Of a stretch of 64,000 bases of DNA, positions 1-24,625 are shown in pieces. Source of the stretch: Bacteroidales bacterium. GTDB taxonomy: Bacteria > Bacteroidota > Bacteroidia > Bacteroidales > VadinHA17. Position 1 is the stretch's first letter, and the number at the start of each line of letters is the position of its first letter. Below the pieces are notes generated by a model. The model had not been told where the DNA came from and made no database searches. It worked only from the letters and a program-made list of their open reading frames with translations. The stretch lies in contig OY764960.1 of the NCBI GenBank assembly GCA_963668715.1, positions 3,953,438 through 4,017,437 on the forward strand. Direction: 5' to 3'. The position numbers and the translations under genes were made by a program.

Positions 1-126
1 GTTGTGCAAACGCTTAACGCGGAACGCGGAACTCTGAACATGGAATCCGGAACCTCCTGCCCTCCGCCTTCTTCCTGTTCCCCGGCATGCAGCCGGAATA
101 CCTGGTTGTTGGCAGCAGTTTTTATT

Positions 127-693
127 TTAATAATATTTGTCAATTCCTCCAAATCCTTTAATCAGTTTATTTTGTTTTGTTTTGTCGATAAAGTTGTTTA
201 GGCGCTTTTCAAATTCCTCAGGTCTTTTCCTTGCACTATCAATGTATGCAATTCTAATCCGTTTATAAGGTTCTGAAAAGTTTTGATAATTTTCCCAAAC
301 AACTTTCTCTGATTTTAACTGAGCTATTATGTCTTCGGGAAAGATGAATTCTTGTTGAATTATTTTTAAAACTTCATTACTAATTGAGTCGTGAATCAAA
401 CTGTTTTCAAAGAGCCATTTTAAGCGTTCAATGTTTGGTTGTGAGACAGACGAGTTCTTTCTTCGTTTACGAAACCTTTGAATAGTGGTCTCTCCGTTTA
501 GTGATTTAACAGTACTGTCAATCCACCCAAAACACAAAGCTTCTTCAACTGCGTCATTATACAAGATCCGTTTTCTGCCGGTCTTCTTTATTGGATATTC
601 CAACCAAATATCATCTTCAGTCTCAAAATTAGTTTCTAGCCATTTTCTCCAATCTTTTCTGTCAACAAAATATTTAGTTGTCATTTCACCCAT
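127..693 (-). CDS. YdeI/OmpD-associated family protein (cassette C1)
   Basis: N-terminal WRKWL...W...Y.DAVEEALCFGWIDS motif and C-terminal 'YKRIRIAYIDSARKRPEEFEKRL' OmdA-type domain. Confidence 0.85.
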   Translation of the reverse strand: MGEMTTKYFVDRKDWRKWLETNFETEDDIWLEYPIKKTGRKRILYNDAVEEALCFGWIDSTVKSLNGETTIQRFRKRRKNSSVSQPNIERLKWLFENSLIHDSISNEVLKIIQQEFIFPEDIIAQLKSEKVVWENYQNFSEPYKRIRIAYIDSARKRPEEFEKRLNNFIDKTKQNKLIKGFGGIDKYY

Positions 694-711
694 TTTTTAA
701 ATTGCTGCCAA

Positions 712-875
712 TAAAGCGCTAACCGAAGTTTACTCTCTTTCCTTCGTGAGATCGCTTCGTTAAGTTCGCACTGAGGGCGAAGCCAAATTGCGTTTAGGCA
801 CGTTTTGGCTCTATGCCCGGATAAAGCTCTGTTTATTATCATAAAGTTACGAAAGCAATTTGGTTTAGCGCAGCG
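712..875. repeat. Non-coding palindromic module family B, copy 1 (degenerate)
   Basis: Shares CCAAATTGCGTTTAGGCACGTTTTGGCTC...GGATAAAGCT...CATAAAGTTAC.AAAGCAATTTGGTTTAGCG with 2949-3240 and 19120-19469. Confidence 0.85.
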
Positions 876-894
876 GCATAATACAATCTATTAA

Positions 895-1236
895 TTGCAG
901 AATTCCATTTTTTCTTTTCGGCGAGCAGTAAAGGCTTATTTATGGGTAGTTCGTTCAGTGATGGACAATTTGGTGTTTTTTCATTACGATAAAGGGTCCA
1001 GGGCCCAGAAAGTTGTCATAGAATTACTCCATAATTACAAAGATGCCGTTCAAACGGATGGTTACGATGTTTATTCTATCTATGAGGATAAACAGGCCTG
1101 TGATATTAATCCCAGGGAGTGGATGACAGATGTCCTTAACAGAATCCCGGAATATAATAACAACTACGACCTGGATCTGGCAGATTTGCTCCCTCACAAC
1201 TGGAAGAAATCCAAGTGTCAGGAAAAATCCAACTAA
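895..1236 (+). pseudogene. IS66-family transposase (TnpC) remnant, internally deleted
   Basis: YLWV...FFHYDKGSR...QTDGY core motif fused directly to the C-terminal 'INPREWMTDVL...LLPHNWK' IS66 domain; IS66-type end ...GGCTTAC at ~1327. Confidence 0.8.
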
Positions 1237-1327
1237 AGTCAACGAAAATCCGGAAATCTTTGGAGATGCTCTAACAAATCCTGGACTATCTTTGATTTTT
1301 ACTACACGCAGCAGGCCGAAGGCTTAC

Positions 1328-1517
1328 TGACGTGCCATCTCATCCTCAGCAAACACCCGCCTTAATATGCGATTCTTGTTCATCAGTACAGGATTTTGCA
1401 GTCAGGCTTCCTTCATGCGGCACCTCACGATGCAACACTTGCCTCTTGCTAGCAGTTCAGTTTACCTCTGCCTGCTCGGGACTTGCACCCTATAGTTAAT
1501 GCCCATGCCGGGCGCAC
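1328..1517 (-). mobile_element. 5' fragment (domain I) of a class C group II intron
   Basis: Minus strand begins GTGCGCCCGGCATGGGC...TATAGGGTGCAAGTCCCGA...GAAGGAAGC, matching the IIC intron 5' end (GUGYGCCCGGCAUGGG); truncated at the IS66 end; no RT ORF or domain V/VI present. Confidence 0.8.
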
Positions 1518-1706
1518 ACGGTAAATTGTATGTTGCGTAGGGCATTTCAAGGCACTTTCCTGTCAAATTGCTAAGTAGCCGAAGCGCAGGTTTGACACCT
1601 GCGAATTAAGCACACCGTCAAAGCTGCGCTTCGGCGGTGCTGAAAAGAGAGCCCAAGCTTCAAATACGGCATATCTGCCCTATGCAATATACAAAATGTT
1701 GTGCCC
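1518..1706 (-). repeat. attC-like cassette recombination site 1
   Basis: Inverted arms TTGTATGTTGCGTAGGGCA / TGCCCTATGCAATATACAA; inverse core GTTGTGCCC at 1698; core GT(T) at 1519-1518 interrupted by the intron. Confidence 0.8.
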
Positions 1707-2948: not shown

Positions 2949-3240
2949 TGCAGCGCTAAACGAAGTTCCGCACTAAGGGCGATTCCGCAAGAGCTTGCTC
3001 TTAGCGGAAGTAAAGCCCGCAAGGGCGGAGCCAAATTGCGTTTAGGCACGTTTTGGCTCAATGCCCGGATAAAGCTGTTTATTTTCATAAAGTTACAAAA
3101 GCAATTTGGTTTAGCGCTGCGTTCGAGCACATTTTCCAAAAGACCGGGACCCCGAGAATTCGGGGGAAGGGATTTTGGTCAGCTTTAGCTGAACCGAGGC
3201 CCGGTTCCGGGCCGAGCTCGGCGAAGCCAATGTGCCTAAC
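2949..3240. repeat. Non-coding palindromic module family B, copy 2
   Basis: 12-bp inverted repeats GCAGCGCTAAAC (2950) / GTTTAGCGCTGC (~3109) and several internal hairpins; homologous to 19120-19469. Confidence 0.85.
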
Positions 3241-3368
3241 GGTCACTTGTATGTGGTCGGGCGGGATTTCTGGAAGAAATCGTGTCAGACCCGCAGGAAA
3301 GTGGGCACGAGGTCTGACTTGTCAGACCGCTAAAACCCCCGCCTGCCATATACAAATTGTTATAGCCA
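3232..3368 (-). repeat. attC-like site 2 (intact)
   Basis: GTGCCTAAC-N8-GTATG...arms TTGTATGTGGTCGGGCGGG / CCCGCCTGCCATATACAA...TATAC-N5-GTTATAGCC. Confidence 0.85.
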
Positions 3369-3381
3369 GTGGTTTTATTCA

Positions 3382-4044
3382 TTATTCAAAGTCTTGATTA
3401 AATAAATACATCTCTAATTGGTCCGCTTCGACTTGATTGTCTTTAGCCAAATTATGAATTAAACTATTAAATTTTTGATAATCTGTAAATTTTGAAGATG
3501 GACTAACATTTACAATTTCAAATATTTCTCTTGGTGTCGTTAGCTTTACTAAAGATGCTGCTACTCTAATGTCAAAAATTATTGCATAATTGTCGACATT
3601 TTTAGCTCTTGTCGCGAAGTATAATATTTTTGTCAGGTAGCTAACGCCAAGACCTTTTATTCCCTTTAATTCTTCAAAAGCGTTTTTCAGACTGTCTTGT
3701 TCGTTTTTGTTTATAAAGTCTATTGCTTTTTTTATTTTCTCTGTGTTGTCATTATTTGAGATATAATTATTCGTCCGGTGAGTTCCATAACCTGTGTCAG
3801 CAAATCCCCAAATCATTGTCAATAAAAACGCCCTCATAAAACCTTTGGAATTGTCTGAAAAATATTCTTTATAAGCGTCTATTACATTTTGTCTTGAAAC
3901 TTCCTTGTTTTCAAAGTCTGTAATTAAATTCTTGAAGTCTGCATTTAATTTTGTCCACTTTGTCGAATTGTACATAAATTTTGAGTCAGTAAGTGGATTT
4001 AATTTTAGTATTTTATTTTTTTGTTGGTCGTTTAATGTAATCAT
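3382..4044 (-). CDS. OGG-like (HhH) DNA glycosylase-family protein (cassette C3)
   Basis: 'TMIWG' motif, HhH-like 'GIKGLGVSYLTKILYF' and 'IFDIRV' motif typical of 8-oxoguanine glycosylase-like proteins. Confidence 0.65.
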   Translation of the reverse strand: MITLNDQQKNKILKLNPLTDSKFMYNSTKWTKLNADFKNLITDFENKEVSRQNVIDAYKEYFSDNSKGFMRAFLLTMIWGFADTGYGTHRTNNYISNNDNTEKIKKAIDFINKNEQDSLKNAFEELKGIKGLGVSYLTKILYFATRAKNVDNYAIIFDIRVAASLVKLTTPREIFEIVNVSPSSKFTDYQKFNSLIHNLAKDNQVEADQLEMYLFNQDFE

Positions 4045-4121
4045 ACTCTATGTTTTGTGTGTCGTTCTACCATTGGCTATAACGTGAGTCTGTACAAATA
4101 CTGTTTTATCACATAAATTTA

Positions 4122-4449
4122 TCAATTTCTACTGTTTGTCAGCGGATTTGAAGCAACTAATTTTAGATGGCACAAAAAGAGAATATCCTTATTTGACGGG
4201 AAATAATCCTTTAAAGCAAGGCTTATAATGAGTCTTAGGTCTGAAATTATAAGAAAACAGTACTCCCTGAGGAGTCTGATCAGCTTTTGTGCTCCCATAA
4301 TTGAGATACAACGGCAGATATTATACCCGGTAAACATAAGTCCGACTTCACCCATGACTTTCTCCCTGGTTCTTACAAGGGTATAAGTGAAGCCTTGTTG
4401 CCGTTTCATTGTGCCAAACATATGCTCCGTTATTTGTTGCCGTAATCTG
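4122..4449 (-). pseudogene. C-terminal part of the IS1182 transposase, split off by IS21
   Basis: 'LRQQITEHMFGTMKRQQGFTYTLVR...' matches the C-terminus of 20965..22527. Confidence 0.9.
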
Positions 4450-4581
4450 TGCATATTCCTGCGATTTCGGACACTAAATCCCGCTGAAAGCGGACAGTTG
4501 TTCCCGTTCAAAACGGACACCTGATCCCGACGAAAACGGACACTTTTCACATCGTTCATTTTCGTTTATTATTTTCTAAAA

Positions 4582-5316
4582 TTAATCATTTTTATATTTC
4601 TCTCTTAACGAGTCTCCATCGAGCTCTATTCTATGAGAACTATGCACTAATCTATCAAGGATCGCGTCAGCGATCGTAGGTTCTCCAATAACATCATACC
4701 AGCTTTTAACCGGAAGCTGTGATGTAATTATCGTTGACCTTTTACCATGCCGGTCTTCGAGTAACTCAAGCAAGAACAGCCTCTGGTTGTTATCTAATGG
4801 TTTAAGCCCGAAGTCATCAAGGATCAACAGGTCCAGTTTCTCTATCCTGTTTATTTCGCTTATATAACTGCCATCTGCCTTAGCCATTTTTAGTTGATCG
4901 AACAGTTTTGAGCAGTTACGGTAATATACTTTATATCCCTGCTGACAGGCCTGATGACCCAAAGCAGAAGCCAAAAAGCTTTTACCCAGTCCTGTGTATC
5001 CGGATATGATGATGCTTTGTTTTCTTTTGATCCATTCACAGGACGATAAACGCAGCATCTGTACTTTATCCAGTTTTCTTTTAGCGATGTAATCTATTTG
5101 TTCCATGCTCGCCTGGTAGCGGAACCTGGCGTTTTTTATTAGTCGATCCAGTCGTCGATTATATCGATCATCCCATTCTGCCTGGACAAGATGAGCAATA
5201 ACTTCATCTATGGTAAAATCTTTACTCATTCCTGATTCCTGCATTTTCCGATAGACTCTTGAGAACCCGCTCAGTCGCATCTCCTCAAGTTTCTGCATTG
5301 TTGCTGTTTGATTCAT
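4582..5316 (-). CDS. istB: IS21 helper ATPase IstB
   Basis: Walker A GYTGLGKS, Walker B LLILDDFG, TSQLP...W...IADAILDRLVH. Confidence 0.95.
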   Translation of the reverse strand: MNQTATMQKLEEMRLSGFSRVYRKMQESGMSKDFTIDEVIAHLVQAEWDDRYNRRLDRLIKNARFRYQASMEQIDYIAKRKLDKVQMLRLSSCEWIKRKQSIIISGYTGLGKSFLASALGHQACQQGYKVYYRNCSKLFDQLKMAKADGSYISEINRIEKLDLLILDDFGLKPLDNNQRLFLLELLEDRHGKRSTIITSQLPVKSWYDVIGEPTIADAILDRLVHSSHRIELDGDSLREKYKND

Positions 5317-5337
5317 AATTTTCTGCTATTAAATTTA

Positions 5338-6885
5338 TTATTTGTAATTCTCTTTTCCTCGTATGTTATGATGAAAAGGAAGTTTTATTTCTATTTGGTT
5401 TTCCTGTTCTGTTTTGTGAGTGTTATTTTTCAGGCAGTTCTTGATAAACTTGAATGAGATACAGTTGTACTCAACAGCCCTGCTGCATACTATTTCCAGA
5501 TCTTCCGGTTTATACCCTTTACTTAGGTTCAATACTCCCATGCAAGATTTAAATGCTTGCTGAGGATGTTCTTTGCTGTCCAACAGGAGTCCTATAAAAA
5601 TCTCTACGGAACCGCCCATCTTTTTGGCCCATTTTACAAAACGATCTGTATTCCAACCATCAACAAACTGATGTTCTGCAGGCATATGACCTTTCTCTGT
5701 TGTATAACCATAAGGCCTGCGGTCTCTTTTATGAAGCGCGATACGAACACTATCCTTGTATATCTCAACATTCCTGTTCGTGTAAATGGTTTTGACCTTC
5801 TGTCCGGTATATTGATAGGGCACGCTGTAATAATGCTTGTCCTCTCTTAGGTAAACATGGTGGTGAAATTCAACTTTAGACACCTGGTAACGACGGATCT
5901 CATATCGCTCTTTGGGTAGTGGTCGCAATTCATTCTTTTCTATTTCATTAAATAACTCTCTTCGACTAATATCCCGGCGCTGGAACGGAGCGTTATTTAT
6001 CTCTTCAAGCTCTTCCCGGATAGCTTCATTTAACTCTCCCAGGGAAAAGAACGTCTGGTTTCTTAGCTTAGCAAAAATGCGTTGATAGACAATGCGTACC
6101 GCATTTTCAACCAAAGATTTATCCTTTGGTTTTAAAGGACGGGTAGGAAGAACAACTGTACCATAATGCCGGGCAAGATCATCATAAGTCTCATTTAATA
6201 AGGGTTCATAATTACATGCCTTGTGAACAGCTGACTTCAAATTATCCGGGCATATCCCCCGGGTGACACCTCCATAATAACGCCAGGCATTCTCATTGGC
6301 CCAGATCCAGTCTTCAAGCTTCTGACTTTTTACTCCTTCCACATAAATCAACTGACTGGCACCAAGTATCGTAATAAATATTTCTGCCGGTTTGACCTCT
6401 CCTGTATCCGGATCAACATAATGCATCTTTTTGCCTGTAAAATCTGCATATGTCAGATCTCCGGCTTTGTGCTCTATATGCATTCCCGCTTTCAGCTTGC
6501 TCTCCCACATGCGATAATGATGACAGAACCTGGAGTAACTAAACCCTTCAGGGTTACCTTCCTTGTATTCCTCCCAAAGCAAATAGAGCGTTACGCCAAC
6601 CCGGGCAAGCTCTTTTTCATAATAAGGGAATTCATTGGATAATTCTTCATAAAGCGGATTGACTATCTTATTTCGCTTTTCAAAGACTTCTGTAAGTTCT
6701 ATGTCGTTCATTTCCAAAACATCCTGGTAGGTTAACCCGGAACGCTTATATTCTGCCAGGTACTCCCCAACACTGGTTTTGCTGACCTGGGTGGCCTCTG
6801 CAATCTGCCGGATGCTAAATCGTAATTCCTGACTAAGTCGTAATATCTCTCTTATCTTTTCCACGTTGGTCCTTTTTCTTGGCAT
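5338..6885 (-). CDS. istA: IS21 transposase IstA (start taken at MPRKRT)
   Basis: HTH N-terminus, 'YADFTG', 'PDNLKSAV', 'PKDKSLVE' rve/DDE motifs. Confidence 0.95.
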   Translation of the reverse strand: MPRKRTNVEKIREILRLSQELRFSIRQIAEATQVSKTSVGEYLAEYKRSGLTYQDVLEMNDIELTEVFEKRNKIVNPLYEELSNEFPYYEKELARVGVTLYLLWEEYKEGNPEGFSYSRFCHHYRMWESKLKAGMHIEHKAGDLTYADFTGKKMHYVDPDTGEVKPAEIFITILGASQLIYVEGVKSQKLEDWIWANENAWRYYGGVTRGICPDNLKSAVHKACNYEPLLNETYDDLARHYGTVVLPTRPLKPKDKSLVENAVRIVYQRIFAKLRNQTFFSLGELNEAIREELEEINNAPFQRRDISRRELFNEIEKNELRPLPKERYEIRRYQVSKVEFHHHVYLREDKHYYSVPYQYTGQKVKTIYTNRNVEIYKDSVRIALHKRDRRPYGYTTEKGHMPAEHQFVDGWNTDRFVKWAKKMGGSVEIFIGLLLDSKEHPQQAFKSCMGVLNLSKGYKPEDLEIVCSRAVEYNCISFKFIKNCLKNNTHKTEQENQIEIKLPFHHNIRGKENYK

Positions 6886-7128
6886 CTGTATTCTCTTGTT
6901 GGTTAATAAAGCCAACAGAGATACCGATATCCCGTGGAAAATGAATGATGTGTATGAAAGTGTCCGTTTTCAGCAAGAATCACCGTCCGCTTTCAAAAGG
7001 GGCGGCTGTCCGCTTTCCGCAGGAATCCGTGTCCGTTTTCAACAAGAATTGCTGTCCGCTTTCCGCAGGAATCCGTGTCCGCTTTCCGCAAGAATGAGTG
7101 TCCGTTTTGCGCGAGAATATGCAATCTG

Positions 7129-8372
7129 TAATAATCAGGATTGTCATTCACTCTTTGTGCATTGGCTTCAATGATATCAGCATATTCACTGCGGTCAATG
7201 TACCTTCCGTTGGCTCTGCATACAGTGCAAAGACTCCTGTTTCTACAGTTCCTGCAGTCGGGCGTAGTATATCTCTTAAACCGATATGCAGATTTCTTCT
7301 TATTCTTTCTGTCTCTGTGATTATGCCAACGTCCGTTGGTCTTCATAATGCTTCCTCCGGGACAGGTATAAAAATCATTCTTTTTATCATAGGTAAAACT
7401 ACTGACAGGATATAGTCCTGTATTTTTTGTTGATGGCTTCTTTGGAGAGACGTATGTAATAATATTATGTAAGCTGCATTCTTTCAATTGCTCGCCTGTG
7501 TGATACCCCTTATCGGACAGTACTGTCATAGTATCAACATCAAGAAGTTCTTTTGTACTTACCGCCACCGGAGCCAGTGCATGGGAATCATTCACATCTC
7601 CCGTGTCATATTCCAGCATCATTTTGTGCTTTGAATCTGATGCGGCCTGTATATTATAACCAACATTCACTATGTTCCTGTGTAATACAACGGCTTTTGA
7701 ATCAGGGTCTGTTGTTGATATCTGTTCCTGTCCGCTTTCGATCAGGTCCGCTTGTATATTTTGATACTCTGATCTCTTAAGCCTGCGTTCTGTAAGTTTC
7801 TTTTCAATGTCTTTCTTATCCTGCTCATTATCATTGGCATCCAGCAGTTCTTCATATTCACTGATCTGTTTGTCAATATATTCAATATGCCTTTTCAGTT
7901 TTGCTTCATTGAAATTATTCTTTAACGAATTGCTCCCTCTTATTTTGAAAGAATCAATTGCAACGTTTTCACCTTCTACAAGATCCCATTCCTTAAGCAG
8001 GCAAACGAATCGCCGGAATATCTCCCTGAATGCTTTTGCATTTTCTTTTCTGAAGTTAGCAATGGTCTTATATTTGGGTCTCAGTCCCGTGAGCAGCCAC
8101 ATGGCTTCGATATTTGTTTGAGCCTCTCTCTCAAGTTTTCTGGATGACCGTATTCCATACCTGTATCCATACAGGTACAGCTTAAGCAAGACTGAAGGAT
8201 GATAAGGCGGCCTCCCTTGTTCTTCACAGTTGACGTGTGCAAATCCAAAGCTTTCCAGGTCAATAACATCAACAAAAGCATCAACCACACGAACAAATGA
8301 ATCGGCAGCTATTGCATTCTCCAGGCAGAACATTAACACCTGATCCCTGTTTTCTCCCTGTTTGTGTTGGAT
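7129..8372 (-). pseudogene. N-terminal and central part of the IS1182 transposase; the start ATG of the intact copy is ATC here
   Basis: GRPPYHP...YGYRYGIRSSRKLERE (DUF772) and DDE motifs; truncated by IS21. Confidence 0.9.
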
Positions 8373-8474
8373 TGCAGTGTGTATTTGTTGAATACAAGAT
8401 ACTTAAAGTATGATCAAAGATTAAATATCGAATGAATTGGTTATCAACAAAACAGTGGGTTTTTGCACAGTCTG

Positions 8475-8740
8475 ACGGTCATCGGTATGATTCAGTAGGT
8501 GGCAACGGGCTTCAGACCGTTGTGGCGCGCTTTTTGCCTTTACCACCCAGCGTTCACGCCGGGACAGTTCACCCGTCATAATACTGTTCACTTTTCTGAA
8601 CGTTAAGTTAGTTAATTTAAGTTCACGGAATACTAGCCGTGATTATGTTTAAAATCTTCTATTCATTATACTCTTCACCCCGATAAATGCGGCTGCAAAA
8701 ACGCGTGCCAAACCTATTGATTATACCGCATGTTGTGCAT
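8475..8740 (-). repeat. attC-like site 3 (long, ~265 bp; core split by IS1182)
   Basis: (A)AC-N8-GTATG; arms CGGTATGATTCAGTAGGTGGCA / TGCCAAACCTATTGATTATACCG; TATAC-N5-GTTGTGCATAG at 8732. Confidence 0.75.
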
Positions 8741-8774
8741 AGTGATTTTTTAGAAAACATTTATCATATCATTC

Positions 8775-10079
8775 CACTAGTGTCCACTAAACTTTAAATA
8801 TAAGCTTTATAATTGTTTACAAATATGTCATTTACATCAAAATACCCGTGTCCACGATTTGAATTAATACTTTTGAATTCTAATGTGAATTTTAAAGTAT
8901 GCACACAGGAAAGTATGTATTTGCACAACTTGTCGAATTTCTTCCGCAAAAGTTTTTTCAGCGAATAGTTTTGGAATATCAAGGTGATAAATATGTGAAA
9001 TCCTTTAGCTGCTGGAACCAGTTGCTTGTAATGATGTTTGGTCAGCTTGCCGGTTGCGGTAGCCTTCGAGAACTTGTTAGCATTCTCGAAGCTCACAACA
9101 GAAAATCCTATCATCTTGGTTTTGGAAAATCCGGAATAACCCGAAGCAATCTTTCGAAAGCTAATGAGAATCGGGATTATCATATTTTCGAAAAGTTTGC
9201 CTATAAAATGATCGATATTGCTCAGAAAAAACGACTCACCAGGGAGTTTGAAATTGAGGGTCGATTTTATGCTTTTGACTCCACTACCATTGACTTGTGC
9301 TTGAGTTTTTTCTGGTGGGCAAAATTCAGAAAAACGAAGTCTGGAATTAAAATGCATACGCTTTTTGATGTTGCAACTCAGATCCCAGCTTTCATTCATA
9401 TTACAGAAGCCAAAGTCCATGATATGAATATCATGGAGGAGATCCCTTATGAGCCTAATGCTTATTATATCTTCGATAGAGGCTACTTTGATCTTGCCAG
9501 ATTGTACCAAATTGATCTTATTAAATCCAATTTTGTTATTCGGCAAAGAGGAAAACTTCAATATAAAATCATCCAGGGAGATGAGCTTCTTGAAGAACCT
9601 GACAATATCCTTTTTGATCAGGTAATAAGGCTGACCGGTCCATTGACTAAACAGAAATATCCGGGAAAACTTCGTCGTATAGTTTTTTATAGTCAAGAGC
9701 ACCGCAGAACCTTTACATATCTTTCGAACAATCTTGAAATTAAAGCATCTCAAATAGCTCTGCTTTATAAAAACAGGTGGCAAGTAGAACTCTTCTTCAA
9801 ATGGATCAAGCAACATCTGCATATCACATCATTTTGGGGTATCTCTGAGAATGCCGTTCGCATACAAATCTATAGTGCAATCACCGCCTACTGTCTGGTT
9901 GCTATTGTTGAAAATGAGCTTAAACTCGGCAAAACGACATTTGAAGTACTCCGAATTTTGAGTGCTTCGCTTCTGGATAAAACCGCTATTAAGGAACTTT
10001 TCATACATGATAAAAACGCAAACAATATGGACAATAGTTATGATTTACAATTACCTTTAATTTTTAGTGGACACTAGTG
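8775..10079 (+). mobile_element. IS4-family element (1305 bp), 17-bp TIR, 9-bp target duplication
   Basis: CACTAGTGTCCACTAAA / TTTAGTGGACACTAGTG; ATATCATTC at 8766-8774 and 10080-10088. Confidence 0.95.
8899..10077 (+). CDS. IS4-family transposase (DUF4372 + DDE_Tnp_1)
   Basis: MHTGKYVFAQL N-terminus; DSTTIDL, FDRGY, 'YKNRWQVELFFKWIKQHL' motifs. Confidence 0.95.
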   Translation: MHTGKYVFAQLVEFLPQKFFQRIVLEYQGDKYVKSFSCWNQLLVMMFGQLAGCGSLRELVSILEAHNRKSYHLGFGKSGITRSNLSKANENRDYHIFEKFAYKMIDIAQKKRLTREFEIEGRFYAFDSTTIDLCLSFFWWAKFRKTKSGIKMHTLFDVATQIPAFIHITEAKVHDMNIMEEIPYEPNAYYIFDRGYFDLARLYQIDLIKSNFVIRQRGKLQYKIIQGDELLEEPDNILFDQVIRLTGPLTKQKYPGKLRRIVFYSQEHRRTFTYLSNNLEIKASQIALLYKNRWQVELFFKWIKQHLHITSFWGISENAVRIQIYSAITAYCLVAIVENELKLGKTTFEVLRILSASLLDKTAIKELFIHDKNANNMDNSYDLQLPLIFSGH

Positions 10080-10919: not shown

Positions 10920-10926
10920 TTTCAGG

Positions 10927-15362: not shown

Positions 15363-15508
15363 ATCTATTTTTTATTGTTTATAAGATTTTTCAAAGGTAA
15401 TAATATGAATTTTTCAATTTAGTTTTTTTATATTTTGATTTGTTTTAGTATTCAATCCGGGTTTCTTGCGTTGGCAAAGATTTGGCTCTTTTGCAAGCTG
15501 AAGCGTTT

Positions 15509-15539
15509 GCTTGTGTGACTTGCCAATGTGTATGGATGC
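15509..15539. repeat. 31-bp direct repeat, copy 2
   Basis: Identical to 10889-10919; lies just downstream of the gajB stop. Confidence 0.9.
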
Positions 15540-15560
15540 ATTGTGCTAGCATTGTGTTGA

Positions 15561-17213
15561 TTATTGTTTTTTCGTCTTATATCTTAATTTTTCAATATTG
15601 TTTAATAGTAAAAATTCCGAATCTCTACCTTGTCTCTTTATCATTTCATTATTGTGTCTTTCAGTACTAGAAATCAGGATACATCCTTTTCTTGCTCTTG
15701 TTAATCCAACATAATGTAAGTTTAAGTCTTGATTCCAATCTCCATAAACAGGATTATTAAAGTCATTATTCGGACCTGGTCTTTTATTTGGAAATACCCA
15801 TTCGTAAAGGTCAAGATGAATTACAACATCATATTCTAGCCCTTTTGATTTATGCAAAGTAAGTATGTTTACTTCATCATCATTCGCTGTTTGATATGAG
15901 TTAAGCTCAACCGAATTATTAAGTACAGAATCCAAAAGGTCGATGGACTCTTTACTTTCAAGATTTGGCGCAATTATTTTTGCGACATTGATAAATTCCT
16001 TTTTAAGCTCATCTAAATCAAGTGGTGAATGGTGTGAGATTTTTTCAATAGTTTCCTTGTATGTTTTCAGTTTTTTTAAATCCCTTGATGAAAATCTATC
16101 ATATGAAGTAAACACCTCTACAACATCAATAAATCTGTAGCCCTTATCGAAAACAAAGTAGAGTAAATTTGAAAATATTGCTGACCAAATATTTAAATTG
16201 AGGTCTAGCTCATTACTAACAAATAACCTATGTGGTGATTTTAAATTTTCATTTATTATGTCTGCGCTTCGATTTCCTCTTGTTAATATCGCTATTTGAT
16301 TTCTGTTTTTTACCTTAAAGATTTTCTGAATAGAATCTATTTTATCGTCAACCCATTTTGCGATGGATGTCTCATCACCATTTATCCTACTAAAGAAAAT
16401 TTGATTAATGTCTGTTTGAATTAGTTCAGTCTTTGGGTTTAATAAATAGTTCGAATAATTAATGATACTAGGATGGCATCTGTGGTTTTTATCAAGTTTA
16501 AAAAATTTAAAATTATCATCTGTTGTTAGTTCTTCTAAGTATTTTGAGTCTTTTCCCGAAAAAGCATATATTGATTGATTCAAGTCACCAACCGCAACTG
16601 CAACTATACCTAAATCGTTTATTTTCTTAAATATTTGGTGTTGCTCAAATCCTGAGTCTTGGTACTCATCTATGTAAATATGTTTGTATTTGGCTTTTAT
16701 ATATTTACGACAGGCAATTGAGTTTGTAAAAACATAGTCTGCAAAAACTCCAATTGTTTCAATAAGTATTATACCATTGCTAAAAAAAACACCTAAATCC
16801 TTTATCTTTTTTTTTTCAAGTTGTTCAAGAGTCAAATTTCTATCAACCCAATCAAATCTATCTTTATCTTCATCAGAAAGAGAAGAGTGTTTTATAATCT
16901 TTATCTCATTATTAGGAATTCCGAATATATGTTTTGCAAAAGGAACAATTATCTCTGATAAATTGAATTTGTCAATTGTACCAAAAAAAGAGCCTAAAGG
17001 TTTTTCTCCATTTGACAAGCTTCTGTTTTTTAATTCATTACTAGCTTTATTGGTGTAGGATATTGCAACCACACCTTGATGGTCGTGTAAATCTTTTAGA
17101 TTATCTTTTATTTTCTTGGACAATACAAACGTCTTCCCACTTCCAGGAGCAGCAATGACAACAGAATTGCCATCATAATCAAGAATTAAATTTTGTTGGT
17201 CAGTCGGCTTCAT
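15561..17213 (-). CDS. gajB: UvrD-like helicase, Gabija GajB-like (start taken at MKPTDQQ)
   Basis: AAPGSGKT, YTNKA, IDEYQD, GDLNQSIY, TLHKSKGLEYD, YVGLTRAR; overlaps the OLD-nuclease gene. Confidence 0.8.
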   Translation of the reverse strand: MKPTDQQNLILDYDGNSVVIAAPGSGKTFVLSKKIKDNLKDLHDHQGVVAISYTNKASNELKNRSLSNGEKPLGSFFGTIDKFNLSEIIVPFAKHIFGIPNNEIKIIKHSSLSDEDKDRFDWVDRNLTLEQLEKKKIKDLGVFFSNGIILIETIGVFADYVFTNSIACRKYIKAKYKHIYIDEYQDSGFEQHQIFKKINDLGIVAVAVGDLNQSIYAFSGKDSKYLEELTTDDNFKFFKLDKNHRCHPSIINYSNYLLNPKTELIQTDINQIFFSRINGDETSIAKWVDDKIDSIQKIFKVKNRNQIAILTRGNRSADIINENLKSPHRLFVSNELDLNLNIWSAIFSNLLYFVFDKGYRFIDVVEVFTSYDRFSSRDLKKLKTYKETIEKISHHSPLDLDELKKEFINVAKIIAPNLESKESIDLLDSVLNNSVELNSYQTANDDEVNILTLHKSKGLEYDVVIHLDLYEWVFPNKRPGPNNDFNNPVYGDWNQDLNLHYVGLTRARKGCILISSTERHNNEMIKRQGRDSEFLLLNNIEKLRYKTKKQ

Positions 17214-18966
17214 TCTGAATTTTTTCAATTATGCTTTTGCATTCAAGAAGTGGTTTTGAAATTGGGTTATCTTTTAGTTTTGTAAGTGAGTTTTTATTGT
17301 TCTTTAGAAAATCAAACATAAAGGTTGCTTTTCTTTTTTGCATTGCCTCCACTATTTCTTCTTCCTCCAATTCAGGAAAGAAATCAATTATTTCTTTTTT
17401 TATAGGACTATTGAAGAAATCATTCTCTAAATCAATTTCTGATAAATACAAGCCGTAGTACTCAAGTTCCTCAATAACAGCATTTGCAGATTCCAAATTT
17501 TCCTTTGGTGGATTAGAATCACCTGACCATTTTAGGTTTGATTCATTCTCCAATAGAATTTTTTCTGTTTCATCATCAGGATTGAAAAACTCTTTATAAT
17601 AGGAAATACATCTTTGAATACCTGCAAAACGATGTTTTTCTTTTTTAGGTACTTTAAATATATCATTGTCTGTTCTAAGTACCCAATCAATTTCTAGGCT
17701 ATTTAATATTTGAATGTATGTTGAAAATCCTATTCCATCCACCATAAGAACACTGATATTTAGTCTATCTAAATCAATTCCTATTTGTGTCGATAATGTT
17801 TTATAGAATAGTTCTTCTGATGGTCCCTCAATTAACAAAACAGCATCTGAAAAGAAGGCTTCTGATGTAATAATACTCTTACGATAACCAAAATCAACAA
17901 ATGCATCATCTATAATTTTTGAACAACCATTTGATGCTGCTTTTGTAGCGTCTTTTTTATTTAATAAACGAACTATTGAATTTGGGCTAAATTCAGAAGT
18001 TATTTGTGATGAGTGAGAAGTCAATAATACTTGACCATTTAGAGAGGAATTAAGATAATCAGCTAATTTTCTTTGTTGATGTGGGTGTAAATGTGCTTCT
18101 GGCTCTTCAATACAAAATATTGTAACTTCTGTCAAGCTTTCTTCAGTTATTCCATTTCTTGAAGTCCATAAAGCTAAATATATCTGATTCAAACGACCAT
18201 CTCCACCAATAACAACATTCTCTCCATTACTTTTTGATGCAATTGCTACATTTTTTACAAAGCTATCTGCATTAGATGTACTGGCATCAAAAAGTACTTC
18301 TTGTTTTTTATGATGTAAAGACAACTTAGAAAGTTCGTTGTTGATTGTATTAGTAGCATTTGCAATAAAATTTAGTTTTGGGATTTTTTCATCGACTTTT
18401 TTTAAATCATCTTGAATTTCAGAGAATAACTTGTCGTCAGAGTCAGTTTGCTCATCAGTTCTATCTTCTTTCGCAATCTGAAATAAATAATTTCTTTCGT
18501 TTCGAATATAATTATTAAAATCTCTCTTGCTACTTATATATTTTACATTAAGAACTTTTCTGTAGTATCTATCTTCAATTTCTTCAATATCTTCATATGA
18601 TTTTCCAGCAAACAGTTTATAAGATTTAGCACCTGTCGATTTTTCCCTAATACCTTTATAAACCAAAACTAACATATCATCATCACTAATCTTCCCTTTC
18701 AATTTCGCCACAACGCAATCATCAACAACATCTTCAAAAAACAGTGTAATTTCAAATTCGTTTGTTTCTTCATATGCATAAAAGTCAGAATCTCTAGGCT
18801 CAATATCATAGTCAGATAAACTTCTATCTAATAAAAGTCTAATCGCCCACATTAAATTTGTTTTACCAACATCATTTGAGCCAATGACTAAAGATTTCTT
18901 GGTTAAATTTATTTTAGCCTTTTTGAAATTCCGAAAACCCTTAAGATTTAAAGTCTTTAGTATCAT
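17200..18966 (-). CDS. gajA: OLD-family ATP-dependent nuclease (ABC ATPase + TOPRIM), Gabija GajA-like
   Basis: GFRNF, GSNDVGKTN, IEEPEAHLHP, TSHS; TOPRIM 'LIEGPSE' and 'TDND'. Confidence 0.85.
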   Translation of the reverse strand: MILKTLNLKGFRNFKKAKINLTKKSLVIGSNDVGKTNLMWAIRLLLDRSLSDYDIEPRDSDFYAYEETNEFEITLFFEDVVDDCVVAKLKGKISDDDMLVLVYKGIREKSTGAKSYKLFAGKSYEDIEEIEDRYYRKVLNVKYISSKRDFNNYIRNERNYLFQIAKEDRTDEQTDSDDKLFSEIQDDLKKVDEKIPKLNFIANATNTINNELSKLSLHHKKQEVLFDASTSNADSFVKNVAIASKSNGENVVIGGDGRLNQIYLALWTSRNGITEESLTEVTIFCIEEPEAHLHPHQQRKLADYLNSSLNGQVLLTSHSSQITSEFSPNSIVRLLNKKDATKAASNGCSKIIDDAFVDFGYRKSIITSEAFFSDAVLLIEGPSEELFYKTLSTQIGIDLDRLNISVLMVDGIGFSTYIQILNSLEIDWVLRTDNDIFKVPKKEKHRFAGIQRCISYYKEFFNPDDETEKILLENESNLKWSGDSNPPKENLESANAVIEELEYYGLYLSEIDLENDFFNSPIKKEIIDFFPELEEEEIVEAMQKRKATFMFDFLKNNKNSLTKLKDNPISKPLLECKSIIEKIQNEAD

Positions 18967-19119
18967 GATTTATTATGTTTTAAAGTCTTTATGTTCATTT
19001 TAATTATCCTCTTCATTGGGTAGGTAAAAAATAGCTCTTTTGTTTTTTTAATTTGCATGTGTGTCGGCAAAAAACAAATGTGCTATTTGTGCTGTGGGCT
19101 GTTTTAGCATGGCACACAA

Positions 19120-19469
19120 TGCAGCGCTAAACGAAGTTCCGCACTGAGGGCGAAGGCTGCCGAGCTTGCTCGAGCAGACTGTAAAGCCCGCAAGGGCGGG
19201 ACCAAATTGCGTTTAGCGTCCATGTTCTGACACGTTTTGGCTCGATGCCCAGGTAAAGCTGTTTATTATCATAAAGTTACTAAAGCAATTTGGTTTAGCG
19301 ACTTGTTCTTGCACGTTTGGGCTCGATGCCCGGATAAAGCTGTTTATTATCATAAAGTTACAAAAGCAATTTGGTTTAGCGCTGCATTCGAGCACATTTT
19401 CCAAAAGACCGGGACCCCGAGAATTCGGGGGTAGGGATTTTGGTCAGCTTTAGCTGAATGTGCTCGAAC
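19120..19469. repeat. Non-coding palindromic module family B, copy 3, with an internal 81-82 bp tandem duplication
   Basis: TGCAGCGCTAAAC (19120) / GTTTAGCGCTGCA (19374); duplicated unit across 19211-19381; TTCGAGCACATT / AATGTGCTCGAA inverted pair across 19388-19468. Confidence 0.9.
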
Positions 19470-19597
19470 GTACACATGTATGAAATGTTTGGGGTTTGCG
19501 GGCTCGTCTCTGTCAACCGTTACAAAAGCGGATGCGGAGGAGAATATTTCGAGTAAACACTAAGCCCCCAAATATTTTATACATGATGTTATGGTGC
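19463..19597 (-). repeat. attC-like site 5
   Basis: CGAAC-N8-GTATG; arms CATGTATGAAATGTTTGGGG / CCCCAAATATTTTATACATG; TATAC-N5-GTTATGGTGC at 19588. Confidence 0.85.
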
Positions 19598-19607
19598 GTT
19601 TGTCTTG

Positions 19608-20894: not shown

Positions 20895-20927
20895 TTTGTT
20901 GGTTGTCTTTTAAATGCACCATAACGG

Positions 20928-22629
20928 GAGTCTGTGCAAAAACTGCTTTCATCACATAAATTTATCAATTTCTACTATTTGTAAGTGGTTTAAAAGCAAT
21001 TAATTTCAAATGGTAGCACAAATTATTTGACGGGAAATAATCCTTTAAAGCGAGGCTTATAAAGCATCTCAGGTCTGAAATTGTAAAAAAACAGTACTCC
21101 CTGAGGAGTCTGATCAGCTTTTGTGCTCCCATAATTGAGATACAACGGCAGATATTATACCCGGTAAACATAAGTCCGACTTCACCCATGACTTTCTCCC
21201 TGGTTCTTACAAGGGTATATGTGAAGCCTTGTTGCCGTTTCATTGTGCCAAACATATGCTCCGTTATTTGTTGTCGTAATCTGTAATAATCAGGATTGTC
21301 ATTCACTCTTTGTGCATTGGCTTCAATGATATCAGCATATTCACTGCGGTCAATGTACCTTCCGTTGGCTCTGCATACAGTGCAAAGACTCCTGTTTCTA
21401 CAGTCCCTGCAGCCAGGCGTAGTATATCTCTTAAACCGATATGCAGATTTCTTCTTATTCTTTCTGTCACTGTGATTATGCCAACGTCCGTTGGTCTTCA
21501 TAATGCTTCCTCCGGGACAGATATAAAAATCATTCTTTTTATCATAGGTAAAACTACTGACAGGATATAATCCTGCATCTTTTGTTGATGGCTTCTTTGG
21601 AGAGACGTATGTAATAATATTATGTAAGCTGCATTCTTTCAATTGCTCGCCTGTGTGATACCCCTTATCGGCAAGTACTGTCATAGTATCAACTTTAAGA
21701 AGTTCTTTTGTACTTACCGCCACCGGTGCCAGTGCATGGGAATCATTCACATCTCCTGTGTCATATTCCAGCATCATCTTGTGCTTTGAATCTGATGCGG
21801 CCTGTATATTATAACCAACATTCACTACTTTCCTGTGTAGTACAACGGCTTTTGAATCAGGGTCTGTTGTTGATATCTGTTCCTGTCCGCTTTCGATCAG
21901 GTCAGCTTGTATATTTTGATACTCTGATCTCTTAAGCCTGCGTTCTGTAAGTTTCTTTTCAATGTCTTTCTTATCCTGCTCATTGTCATTGGCATCCAGC
22001 AGTTCTTCATATTCACTGATCTGTTTGTCAATATATTCAATATGCCTTTTCAGTTTTGCTTCATTGAAATTATTCTTTAACGAATTGCTCCCTCTTATTT
22101 TGAAAGAATCAATTGCCACGTTTTCACCTTCTACAAGATCCCATTCCTTAAGCAGGCAAACGAATCGCCGGAATATCTCCCTGAATGCTTTTGCATTTTC
22201 TTTTCTGAAGTTAGCAATGGTCTTATATTTGGGTCTCAGTCCCGTGAGCAGCCACATAGCTTCGATATTGGTTTGAGCCTCTCTCTCAAGTTTTCTGGAT
22301 GACCGTATTCCATACCTGTAACCATACAGGTACAGCTTAAGCAGGACCGAAGGATGGTAAGGAGGCCTCCCTTGTTCTTCACATTTTACATGATCAAATC
22401 CAAAGCTTCCCAGGTCAACTACATCAACAAAGGCATCAACCACACGGACAAATGAATCGGCAGCTATTGCATTCTCCAGGCAGAACATTAGCATTTGGTT
22501 CCTGTTTTCTCCCTGTTTGTGTTGCATTACAGTGTTTATTTGTTGAATACAAGATACTTAAAGTATGATCAAAAATTAAATATCGAATGAATTGGTTATC
22601 AACAAAACAGTAGGTTTTTGCACAGTCTG
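20928..22629 (-). mobile_element. IS1182-family element copy 2 (intact, 1702 bp), 4-bp target duplication ACGG
   Basis: GAGTCTGTGCAAAAAC / GTTTTTGCACAGTCTG ends; ACGG at 20924-20927 and 22630-22633. Confidence 0.9.
20965..22527 (-). CDS. IS1182-family transposase
   Basis: DUF772 'GRPPYHP', 'IDSFKI', 'ADKGY', 'EHMFGTMKR' motifs. Confidence 0.95.
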   Translation of the reverse strand: MQHKQGENRNQMLMFCLENAIAADSFVRVVDAFVDVVDLGSFGFDHVKCEEQGRPPYHPSVLLKLYLYGYRYGIRSSRKLEREAQTNIEAMWLLTGLRPKYKTIANFRKENAKAFREIFRRFVCLLKEWDLVEGENVAIDSFKIRGSNSLKNNFNEAKLKRHIEYIDKQISEYEELLDANDNEQDKKDIEKKLTERRLKRSEYQNIQADLIESGQEQISTTDPDSKAVVLHRKVVNVGYNIQAASDSKHKMMLEYDTGDVNDSHALAPVAVSTKELLKVDTMTVLADKGYHTGEQLKECSLHNIITYVSPKKPSTKDAGLYPVSSFTYDKKNDFYICPGGSIMKTNGRWHNHSDRKNKKKSAYRFKRYTTPGCRDCRNRSLCTVCRANGRYIDRSEYADIIEANAQRVNDNPDYYRLRQQITEHMFGTMKRQQGFTYTLVRTREKVMGEVGLMFTGYNICRCISIMGAQKLIRLLREYCFFTISDLRCFISLALKDYFPSNNLCYHLKLIAFKPLTNSRN

Positions 22630-22760
22630 ACGGATGGCAATATGCGGAGGCCGGGATTTCGAAGCTCCAACTTGTCAAGCCGTTGCGAATTTGAGTAAAT
22701 GTACAAAAGTTCAAATTACCCACAACCCCCGGCTTACGTATATTGCGTGTTAGGCATTGG
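22630..22760 (-). repeat. attC-like site 6 (core split by IS1182)
   Basis: (A)AC-N8-ATATG; arms GCAATATGCGGAGGCCGGG / CCCGGCTTACGTATATTGC; N5-GTTAGGCA at 22749. Confidence 0.85.
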
Positions 22761-22763
22761 CCC

Positions 22764-23831
22764 TTATTCTTCAGCTAATTTCAAAGCCATATTTATAAAA
22801 TCACCTATTGATCTGCCTACTATTGCTACTCCCGCATCATGCACAGATGTCAAGTTAAATCTACCTTGAGCAGCACCATTTAAAGCATAATCATGCCCAT
22901 CTATCTCTACTACACACCAATGCTTTTGACGGCACTCAATAATAACCTCACTGGCATAAAAAGGCCAATCACCATTATATTCCGTTTTTTTAATCTTTTG
23001 GTGTTTATAGTCTGAATTATTTTTCCTTTTGATCTTATCAAATATGGTTCTCTATCGAACTTTTGTTTCTTTCTTTTTAAATCTTGTTGTTTCTTTTCTA
23101 TAGTCAATTATCCCAATCTGATTGTCAGATAACATAATGAAGTCATAATATACCGATGAAAATTGTTGAGCTTTTTGTCCTAATCTACCTAATGTGAATT
23201 GTCGGCTTATCCCACGAACAAATCTTTCCAGTTTGCTTATAATGGATTGCGTCACAAAAGCATTAACCTCATTTTGATATTCAAAGTCCGTTAGCTTCTC
23301 TAATAATTTGGTAGCTGCAAGAACTATTTTAGTTTCATAATCCGACCATAATTGCTTTACATCAATGCTTGGTTTAATCGCTGATGTTATAATATCCAAA
23401 TTGTGATATCTTGCATATTTCCCAAATTCTGATAATAGATAAATTAATTGTTGCAAGTCATTATCATTGGTTATAAATTCTTTATCAGCCATCAAAGCTG
23501 GAATACCATTACTTTTAAAATAGTCTGAAAGTATTTTTCCCTTTAATTCGGTTAAATCATGTCCATTCCTTCCACCGCAATTTTTCAGAGTTCTACTGTC
23601 AGGATATTCATTATTTAATTCAAGAAAACCCAAACAAATATGACATTTCATAAGTCTTTCCAATCCACTTGATAACAGATGGAAAGGTAAATGATAAAAA
23701 TCATTCCCCAAATCGAGGTTCTGTAACTCTCCAAATCCAAGTTTTATTAACTTAATTGAAGTTGTCAACTCATCATGCAAGTATATGTCTTTTAATACTC
23801 TGTCACTCATTTTACGTGATTTGTGAATCAA
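22764..23831 (-). pseudogene. 355-codon reading frame with a single in-frame TAG at 23052-23054; C-terminus resembles DUF2511/YebY
   Basis: Frame continues past the TAG as [45 protein letters not shown]...KLAEE*, ending next to attC-6. Confidence 0.7.
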
Positions 23832-23845
23832 AATATGATTCTAAG

Positions 23846-24493
23846 CTAATCTAGTTTATCAAGGTTCTCAGTCACAAAAAGTAAAACTGATAAATATTTG
23901 TAGCATATAACTTTTTCTCCGTAGTCGACCGAAACCCCATGCACTATATCATGTCTATTTACTTTTGATGGATTTCCTGAGTCTTGATTTCTTGAATATT
24001 CCCATACTGTATCAACAGGGTGTAATAACATTTGCTGAAAATACTTGATTTCTTTTGATGCAAGAATTTGTTTTAGTTTGGGTTCATTATTTCTTGTTCC
24101 AAAGAATCTAATTCCAGTTTTATCCTCTGTAATTCCTTCTATCTGACTTATAATAGTTGGTATCACCAAATAGAACAGTTGTTTTTCAATTCCATAAAAT
24201 ATCTGACTTACAATAGTTTCCCTTTTAGTATTCTTTTTAATCAACAGTTTCTTAAACTTGTCAATATTTGCTGCAAAATGATTTTCAAAGAATAAATCAA
24301 TTCCAATGTTATTGCTATTCTTGATTAATTCAGCTAGCTCATTTATCTCATATGGATTTAATTGATTAATATACATCCAATCATAAAAACAAGCTTTTTT
24401 CGCTATCTCAGAGAGCCTATCAAATATCTTTTCAGTTTGCTGTTGTCTTTCTAGTCTCTGACTTATTATTTGACTTAATTCTTTTGACATCAT
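23846..24493 (-). CDS. Hypothetical protein with HEPN-like motif (first gene of cassette C7)
   Basis: 'VIPTIISQIEG' and 'NRHDIVHG' RxxxxH motif. Confidence 0.6.
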   Translation of the reverse strand: MMSKELSQIISQRLERQQQTEKIFDRLSEIAKKACFYDWMYINQLNPYEINELAELIKNSNNIGIDLFFENHFAANIDKFKKLLIKKNTKRETIVSQIFYGIEKQLFYLVIPTIISQIEGITEDKTGIRFFGTRNNEPKLKQILASKEIKYFQQMLLHPVDTVWEYSRNQDSGNPSKVNRHDIVHGVSVDYGEKVICYKYLSVLLFVTENLDKLD

Positions 24494-24517
24494 GATTTAT
24501 GTTTGCAGGATTTCCTT

Positions 24518-24625
24518 GGGCTTATGCCTAACATTTGGCTATATGTATACATATATTTTTACTATATCTCCTGTTTTAATTACATATACCCCTTAATTTT
24601 TAGAGTGTATATGTATACATAATAC
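24518..24625 (-). other. Candidate attI-like site at the head of the array
   Basis: GCCTAAC-N8-ATATG half-site with no partner hairpin arm or inverse core; TATATGTATACATA repeated at ~24540 and ~24607. Confidence 0.45.

Follow-up and report, generated by a model that had tools for sequence, protein, structure and literature searches.

The window analyzed here comprises 64,000 nucleotides (nt) from a Bacteroidales bacterium (VadinHA17), positions 3,953,438-4,017,437 of the forward strand of contig OY764960.1 (GCA_963668715.1), and its first 24.5 kb hold a long array of genes separated by hairpin-forming junction sites. Every gene between positions 1 and 24.5 kb lies on the minus strand. Integrons are defined by the integrase IntI, an attI site, cassettes that carry attC sites, and crossover at G^TT, and we consider it likely that window positions 1-24640 form an integron-type gene-cassette array, with an attI-like site at 24533-24640 from which reading proceeds along the minus strand. 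This array would consist of seven coding cassettes (C1 to C7) and at least two cassettes that lack an open reading frame (ORF), each followed by an attC-like hairpin site, and its units would be exchanged as circles. Coordinates below refer to the window unless the genome is named.

The attI-like array head (24533-24640, minus strand) contains two copies of TATATGTATACATA and ends in ..CCAAAT G|TTAGGC at the first cassette. From there the cassettes follow one another on the minus strand, each with a head at its high-coordinate end and an inverse-core extension beside its hairpin site. The first, C7 (20925-24531; head 24518-24531; inverse-core extension 22749-22763), has two ORFs of unknown function (23846-24493 and 23052-23831), and its hairpin site (22632-22748 plus base 20925) is split by an insertion sequence (IS) of the IS1182 family at 20926-22631, the transposase of which has DUF772 and DDE_Tnp_1 domains. 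C6 (19469-20924; head 20911-20924; inverse-core extension 19588-19601) carries a 187-amino-acid (aa) gene and a DUF3223/HamC-like gene and ends in a hairpin site at 19469-19587. It is followed by an ORF-less cassette, Y (19120-19468), which reads TTCGAGCACATTC ... AATGTGCTCGAAT and then runs into a long junction site of what we call type B (19120-19395) with a duplicated 81-nt module. The next cassette, C5, is 8.4 kb long (10688-19119; head 19106-19119; inverse-core extension 10806-10821; hairpin site 10688-10805) and encodes Gabija, with gajA at 17200-18966 and gajB at 15561-17228 (scores of 734 bits for GajA and 624 bits for GajB, alongside Pfam matches), together with a three-gene set at 10927-15362 that is made up of a 385-aa gene, a HerA-like gene, and a DruA-like gene (DruA, 265 bits).

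C4 (4083-10687; head 10675-10687; inverse-core extension 8732-8744) has a 186-aa gene, inside which an IS4-like element has inserted (8775-10082, with a 9-bp target duplication), and its 255-nt hairpin site (8478-8731 plus base 4083) is split by a second IS1182 copy, in turn interrupted by an IS21 element (4084-8477). C3 (3240-4082; head 4069-4082) consists of an OGG-fold gene at 3382-4044, an inverse-core extension at 3359-3373, and a hairpin site at 3240-3358, and is followed by the second ORF-less cassette, X (2949-3239), with a type B junction site at 2949-3121. C2 (1520-2948; head 2936-2948; inverse-core extension 1698-1711; hairpin site ~1522-1697) holds a Crp-like gene and two small genes. 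Between C2 and C1 lies debris without an assigned strand (712-1521), in which we found the 5' fragment of a group IIC intron (~1315-1521, minus strand; Rfam RF02001, 44.7 bits) that interrupts the C2 3' core after GT, a fragment of an IS66 transposase on the plus strand (895-1236; DDE_Tnp_IS66), and a type B site (712-880). The last cassette, C1 (1-711; head 702-711; inverse-core extension 108-118), has a YdeI/OmdA-like gene at 127-693.

Each of the seven coding units has at its two ends an inverted repeat of 13-15 nt (GTT... / ...AA[C/T]) that is specific to that unit. The original prediction for this DNA had quoted two end strings for each unit, and all 14 of the 14 are in place. The right ends of C1, C2, and C5 finish in T rather than C (AAT), and the strings quoted for these three stop at ..AA because the next base is not C. 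The match had been put at 9-15 bp; the measured lengths are 14, 14, 15, 13, 10+5 (with a one-base bulge), 14, and 15 nt for C1 to C7, if one fixed wobble or mismatch is allowed. To score the pairing, we compared positions 4-16 of each left end with the reverse complement of the right end, so that the shared GTT/AAC was excluded. Own ends matched at 7-11 of 13 positions per unit, compared with a mean of 3.95/13 for the 42 non-own pairs, and the assignment of each end to its own partner was the unique best of 5040 permutations. The prediction that the pairing belongs to the cassette and not to its neighbor was thus borne out, as the head that abuts each site in the array matches only 2-5 of 13 positions. 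When the best end pair was searched for without guidance over whole intergenic regions of related arrays, the result was too noisy to tell own ends from others (means of 10.6 of 13 for own and 9.2 for other ends), although individual true pairs were clear.

Folding gave the same picture. The in silico circularization that had been suggested as a check was run as minimum-free-energy folding of plus-strand DNA for the five cassettes with a readable site, with the IS removed in silico for C4 and C7, and the own-end joint was 7-9 kcal/mol more stable than the array form in 5/5 cases (circle versus array: C3, -38.6 vs -31.3; C4, -47.8 vs -40.1; C5, -27.7 vs -19.4; C6, -32.4 vs -24.2; C7, -30.4 vs -21.0 kcal/mol). 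Swapping in the heads of the six other cassettes brought no energy gain. The part of the original claim that concerns structure therefore stands, in that the outer (R) stem is fully formed only through the joining of the two ends of one cassette and the crossover lies beside the GTT triplet, while excision and integration as such would follow from this layout. We infer from the cassette-by-cassette covariation that the circular form is under selection.

One position of the stem stands out from the rest. Seen on the plus strand, position 11 is G in every left end and A in every reverse-complemented right end; in the gene-sense view, this corresponds to A in the head and G in the reverse-complemented inverse-core extension, in 7/7 cassettes. 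Beyond position 11, the only differences are the one-base bulge in C5 and a neighboring mismatch in C7. The same A/G pair occurs in 14/15 further head-partner pairs beside type B sites of this genome, where a partner lay on the expected side and no more than 10 kb away for 15 of 43 heads as against 74 of 2150 control windows, and also in the clear pairs of three related arrays. On the antisense strand this position forms a T·G wobble and on the sense strand an A·C mismatch, and the outer stem of the circle is an approximately 14-bp duplex with a near-invariant T·G at position 11 on the antisense strand. Because the sense strand has A·C mismatches where the antisense strand has G·T pairs, the plus (antisense) strand folds more stably than the minus strand in 5/5 circles and in 11/14 sites across the genome. 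Array orientation relative to the replication fork showed no consistent pattern (origin at ~1.58 Mb, terminus at ~3.74 Mb) and was no help on the folding strand.

The junction sites fall into two types. Type A sites (1522-1697, 3240-3358, 8478-8731, 10688-10805, 19469-19587, and 22632-22748) are imperfect palindromes of 120-260 nt with outer cores ..AAC and GTT.. and conserved inner arms (..GTAT.. / ..ATAC..). When the six were aligned and folded, the cores read GCACAAC/GTTGTGT, GCCTAAC/GTTATAG, and similar, and each site lies 3' of its gene on the minus strand. They share with attC the outer cores (RYYYAAC ... GTTRRRY), the paired inner arms, and the occurrence of one site per cassette downstream of the ORF. 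The inner stems of the folded type A sites pair without bulges, and no counterpart of the L-box extrahelical bases (R''-L'' arm of the folded bottom strand) was found in them. Type B sites (712-880, 2949-3121, and 19120-19395) are about 175 nt long and have the form T-GCAGCGCTAAAC ... GTTTAGCGCTGC-A/G, with more than 40 copies at cassette junctions genome-wide, and homology among dozens of these copies begins and ends at the AA|T and G|TT boundaries. They are the commonest junction element of this genome and are built unlike the type A hairpins, with a 12-bp perfect stem that abuts the core, no unpaired spacer, an inner GCTAAAC/GTTTAGC pair, and duplicable 81-nt modules.

Mobile elements also make use of these sites. 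The IS1182-family element, which encodes a 520-aa transposase, is inserted directly after the ..AAC of sites at 20926-22631 and 4084-8477. Further copies lie at genome positions 1731394-1733132, 916876-918605, and 2397671-2399389, and the copy at ~1.733 Mb is placed in a site in the same way. Judged by these placements, the element appears to be a site-specific parasite of the hairpins, like the IS1111-attC elements of classical integrons. In another Bacteroidetes genome, derivatives of about 150 nt with IS1182 ends, of the miniature inverted-repeat transposable element kind, flank a homologous cassette. The 5' ends of group IIC introns are inserted at GT^T of the 3' core in the gene sense, both as the fragment at 1315-1521 (minus strand) and at genome 2414240-2414444, and the two junctions are 96.6% identical.

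The direction in which the array is read is given by its head. The sequence at 24533-24640 is 81% identical over 108 nt to genome 1736304-1736410, where it extends from the stop codon of a tyrosine recombinase gene to the first cassette, so that attI lies beside the recombinase gene at the array head there and is present without that gene in the window. A third attI-like copy at genome 2669546 shows 90% identity over 59 nt, and the three copies align up to G|TT and then diverge. As the recombinase locus has the same attI-like head, the direction of the array is leftward along the minus strand, with crossovers at 711|712, 2948|2949, 4082|4083, 10687|10688, 19119|19120, 20924|20925, and 24531|24532. 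At these G^TT points each head complements the inverse core of its own cassette, and the sites in the array are chimeric. The original prediction had read the plus strand and claimed exact boundaries on that basis, which the attI head, the gene order in relatives, and the linkage of the ORF-less cargo all contradict. With the polarity set from attI, its supposed starts (108, 1698, 3359 ...) are the complements of 3' inverse cores, and each gene unit travels with its low-coordinate hairpin rather than the one with which it had been paired. The seven coding units that it listed are all real, and the two ORF-less cassettes (2949-3239 and 19120-19468) had gone uncounted.

Of the alternatives, an array read on the plus strand survives best, although we regard it as unlikely. 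Its units would start at the plus-strand G^TT (108, 1698, 3359 ...) and own the high-coordinate hairpin, with the genes antisense to the array. The own-end pairing is symmetric and fits this equally well; the longer spacer arm of the sites would then also follow the rules of classical attC, as would the direction of the group IIC intron. Against this, the attI abuts a cassette head with no hairpin between them, which would deprive C7 of its site. At 1.736 Mb, the recombinase and attI occupy the end of the array that is upstream of the genes, as they also do in three other genomes, namely Tangfeifania diversioriginum, the contig of a Saccharicrinis carchari homolog, and one metagenome-assembled genome. 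In these three, the recombinase comes first and is followed by an attI of ~100 nt, after which G|TT-head, gene, ..AAC, hairpin, and the next G|TT-head are met in turn, all in one direction. The Tangfeifania array has a complete hairpin at its far end. In both of its window copies, the ORF-less cargo TTCGAGCACAT... is tied to the low-coordinate type B site, while the hairpins on its other side differ, and the G·T wobbles favor folding of the plus strand as the antisense strand. The arm that carries the extra bases would likewise point to the plus strand as the top strand, a reading that was rejected in view of the attI match to the recombinase locus and the gene order in relatives. The covariation of G or A at position 1 with the type of the neighboring site was rejected as a marker of the crossover side, as type B sites are palindromic to the last base (T...A) and the argument is symmetric.

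For the minus-strand array of mobile cassettes, movement is seen in the distribution of the cargo. ORF-less cargo occurs behind three different sites, two of them window hairpins (with one of these copies of the cargo at 3122-3239) and the third an attI-like site (with the cargo at genome 2669423-2669538). The original prediction had held that the same cassettes should be met with other neighbors elsewhere, and would have been undermined by homologs that kept the same neighbors or lacked such ends; homologs of C3 and C6 with different neighbors were found. A 76% homolog of C3 in a Bacteroidetes metagenome-assembled genome shares the ACCACTGGCTATAAC inverse-core extension exactly, has a related head (GTTATGGGCAATTG), and stands among different neighbors with a hairpin of its own, and the C3 gene was found in none of the 40 relatives searched. 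The DUF3223/HamC-like protein of C6 is 51% identical to that of a cassette gene in the Tangfeifania array, which again has other neighbors and its own complementary ends. The cassettes have a G+C content of 29-33%, compared with 40.3% for the genome.

These observations also bear on the idea that the inverted ends act on RNA or transcription, as 5'/3' stems or insulating terminators of static units, which we consider very unlikely. The hairpins do lie just past stop codons, where they could terminate transcription, and assembled contigs revealed no excision product. On the sense strand and hence in mRNA, however, position 11 is an A·C mismatch and the stems are weaker than on the antisense strand. 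Such a role would also leave unexplained that homology among junction sites begins and ends exactly at AA|C and G|TT, that the same cargo stands behind different sites and an attI, that cassette homologs have different neighbors elsewhere, and that the arrays are linked to a tyrosine recombinase. The view of the units as transposon-like, with terminal inverted repeats on each unit in an array rich in IS elements, or as hairpins mobilized by a transposase (e.g., of the IS200/IS605 type), is barely credible, as the repeats differ between units except for GTT/AAC and could not be recognized by any single transposase, the unit ends have no target-site duplications, the array has no associated gene of the HUH or TnpA type, and the IS1182, IS21, IS4-like, and IS66 elements have ends of their own and interrupt the sites.

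The candidate enzyme for the minus-strand cassette array is a 383-aa Xer/XerA-like tyrosine recombinase encoded at genome position 1.736 Mb, which would act in trans on the recombinase-less array in the window. It is co-oriented with the cassettes, adjoins attI, and is the only array-type recombinase of the genome. None of the tyrosine recombinases in the genome reaches the cut-off of the integron-integrase model TIGR02249; the 383-aa protein scores 183.8 bits (cut-off 265) as two separate segments, with model positions 178-239 left out between them, and 213.9 bits against NF040815, the XerA type (cut-off 220). Compared with VchIntIA (2a3v), residues 275-304 (30 aa) replace IntI residues 176-248 (73 aa), and judged from this alignment the protein lacks the IntI-specific additional domain (I2 helix, near patch III) by which integron integrases are defined. 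Its best solved relatives are archaeal XerA structures (PDB 4a8e, 123 bits, and 5hxy, 119 bits), and its approximately 100 N-terminal residues have no Pfam match. Homologs with 51-61% identity are numerous in Bacteroidales and Marinilabiliales, where they head similar arrays in Tangfeifania, Saccharicrinis, and one metagenome-assembled genome, and the Bacteroidales homologs are labeled “XerD”, “site-specific integrase”, or “tyrosine recombinase/integron integrase”. In another genome, a 36% homolog is followed by a mercury-resistance cassette with own-complementary ends. A search for related loci with the recombinase alone returned only an unrelated match, and an exact-sequence look-up of the recombinase gave no match.

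How such an array might work can be outlined from these parts. On the gene-sense strand, crossover would split the 3' core after its first base and ahead of the TT (G|TT; A|TT in the case of type B sites). An integrated cassette would then start with TT and its specific head and end with the ..AAC inverse core that belongs to it, followed by the hairpin body and a final G, which would make the outer stems in the array chimeric, with the inverse core of one cassette facing the head of the next. Only the excised circle would bring a cassette's own head and inverse-core extension together into the stem of ~14 bp. For C3, the circle junction would read ...CCACTGGCTATAAC + hairpin 3358→3240 + G|TTATAGCCAATGG and carry the low-coordinate hairpin. 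The reactive strand is probably the antisense strand (the plus strand of the window), which would be folded as single-stranded DNA and cleaved at AA^C. This strand is suggested by the attI-G|TT-head junction together with the standard polarity of tyrosine recombinases (cleavage 3' of the arm, ..RYYYAA^C), and if the sense strand reacted instead, attI and the first head would be separated by a hairpin, yet none is seen there. That the antisense strand folds more strongly is in line with its being the exchanged strand.

Several observations weigh against this account. The pairing of palindromic ends cannot by itself fix polarity. The only one-sided extra bases in the type A sites are in the spacer beside the R box on the cleaved arm (5-6 nt, compared with 3 nt opposite), which mirrors classical attC, and the orientation of the group IIC intron is opposite to that of classical IIC-attC introns, which insert into the bottom strand (PMC3001079). 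An 85% homolog of C3 stands in an ordinary, non-cassette context without such ends. In the runs of the isolate, available as assembled Logan contigs, all joints fell in repeats and no circle or deletion junction appeared. The last site of the array is degenerate, with short tandem repeats in its place downstream of C1 (from 107 to 1 and past the window edge). The window contains no PF00589 match, and no recombinase was found in it or within 11 kb, so that activity in trans has to be assumed. Finally, the recombinase is missing the IntI insertion that is needed for classical single-strand attC recombination.

Other features of the locus concern its surroundings and its cargo. A sequence of about 190 nt at 24647-24837, with no assigned strand, is repeated directly past the far end of the array at genome 3953003-3953193, ~250-430 nt to the left of window base 1, with 94.8% identity over 192 nt, and this direct repeat brackets the whole array and attI. 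A third copy at genome 3947603-3947850, 6 kb further left, holds half of attI and adjoins an identical IS4-like element. The layout suggests a duplication, a rearrangement, or recombinational loss of the recombinase gene. An element with a trio of tyrosine recombinases is present in two identical copies (genome 3939378-3942610 and 477448-480203), one of which lies 11 kb to the left of the window within fragmentary array DNA. Outside the array, the window contains an ordinary housekeeping gene, the bacterial class A RNase P RNA (54638-55013, minus strand, 243.5 bits).

The cargo consists of Gabija, the HerA/DruA-like set, HamC-like, OGG-fold, Crp-like, and YdeI-like genes, and unknowns. The three-gene set at 10927-15362 (a 385-aa protein of an unknown family, a HerA-like ATPase, and a DruA/DUF4338-like protein) stands beside the complete Gabija system and may be an undescribed defense system. 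After each of the two C5 operons there is a near-identical 38-nt sequence (10885-10922 and 15505-15542) with a TTGGCAAG/CTTGCCAA hairpin, which may act as a terminator or be left over from a site that formerly stood between two cassettes.

Much of this arrangement is familiar from integrons. The definition of the integron and the view that array sites are chimeric and completed by a cassette's own ends are said to go back to the work of Hall and colleagues in 1991 and of Stokes and colleagues in 1997. Chimeric array sites completed by a cassette's own ends are standard integron knowledge, and recombinase-less arrays have been described as CALIN (Cury et al. 2016, PMC4889954). As in integrons and CALIN, the array is co-directional and consists mostly of promoter-poor accessory genes. 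As in integrons, gene units are followed by imperfect palindromes with ..RYYYAAC / GTTRRRY.. cores, and sites are chimeric in the array, with the outer stem completed in the circle by the two ends of one cassette; the recombinase gene has an attI with repeated motifs beside it, the sites are targets of IS elements and group II introns, and anti-phage functions are among the cargo. Unlike in integrons, the recombinase has no IntI domain, carries an extra N-terminal region of ~100 residues, and is co-oriented with the cassettes. The sites also differ, with an asymmetric spacer (5-6 nt on the cleaved arm and 3 nt opposite), no evident extrahelical bases in the inner stem, and an outer stem of ~14 bp with a fixed T·G at position 11; there is a second, 175-nt class of sites (type B) with a fully paired core, and the group IIC intron is on the gene-sense strand. 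With neither the IntI domain nor the L-box extrahelical bases found, the platform is not a canonical integron. The own-end rule is itself ordinary integron logic, and what is unusual is the platform, with a recombinase that lacks the IntI domain, an extended stem, and a fixed wobble. The extension of the R stem to ~14 bp, the near-invariant position 11, and a spacer bulge on the arm opposite to that of classical attC are new details.

Recombination of folded attC sites is taken to require the additional domain of IntI, and the most diagnostic footprint of integron exchange is found here where the only candidate enzyme is one without it. We tentatively propose, as a possibility that is more doubtful than the array itself, that Bacteroidales and Marinilabiliales have an integron class of their own, in which an Xer-like recombinase without I2 recombines folded single-stranded sites. 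The strand would be chosen through the ~14-bp R arm that is complete only in the circle, the obligatory T·G at position 11 of the antisense strand, and the spacer bulge on the cleaved arm, and not through extrahelical bases. If this is true, the pairing of own ends would be a functional need of an Xer-type binding arm and not just a by-product of where the crossover lies, which bears on the evolution of single-strand recombination from Xer-type enzymes. In a survey with IntegronFinder 2.0, integrons were nearly absent from Bacteroidota, with none in Bacteroidales (10.1101/2022.02.28.482270).

There is also some likeness to Xer/dif modules, such as the pdif modules of Acinetobacter plasmids and archaeal XerA, in that the recombinase is closest to XerA and the duplex arm of ~11-14 bp beside the cleavage point fits an Xer-like binding arm. 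The pdif modules have double-stranded sites of 28 bp with conserved sequence and alternating orientation, while the present array differs from them in its 120-260-nt hairpins, its cassette-specific outer arms, and its single direction from an attI at the head.

Among published systems, the array most closely resembles rAID-1, the recombinase-associated acquired interbacterial defense clusters of gut Bacteroidales (Ross et al. 2019; 10.1101/471110). These are recognized by a 5' XerD-like recombinase at least 44% identical to B. fragilis BF9343_RS08045, at least two co-directional downstream genes with a G+C content of 41% or less, and type VI secretion immunity cargo (Ross et al. 2019; 10.1101/471110). 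They were noted to have “intergenic sequences reminiscent of integrons”, on the basis of motif enrichment only, with no hairpin sites, crossover, or circular-cassette signature described (10.1101/471110). Full-text literature searches found no published description fuller than that of rAID-1, which does not prove that there is none. The two share an XerD-family tyrosine recombinase at the 5' end, long co-directional arrays of low G+C content, and a Bacteroidales host, a likeness of layout and recombinase family, and all cassette genes here are on the minus strand at a G+C content of no more than 41%. Unlike rAID-1, which is defined by type VI secretion immunity genes, the cargo here is anti-phage defense, regulators, and unknowns; no type VI secretion immunity cargo appeared in the array annotation, which involved no search aimed at immunity-family profiles. 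Such arrays also carry complete anti-phage defense systems, and once the polarity is set from the attI end, the own-end rule gives exact cassette boundaries for their annotation. With a crossover point, a strand, circle junctions, and a wobble at position 11, arrays of the rAID-1 type gain a mechanism that is concrete and can be tested.

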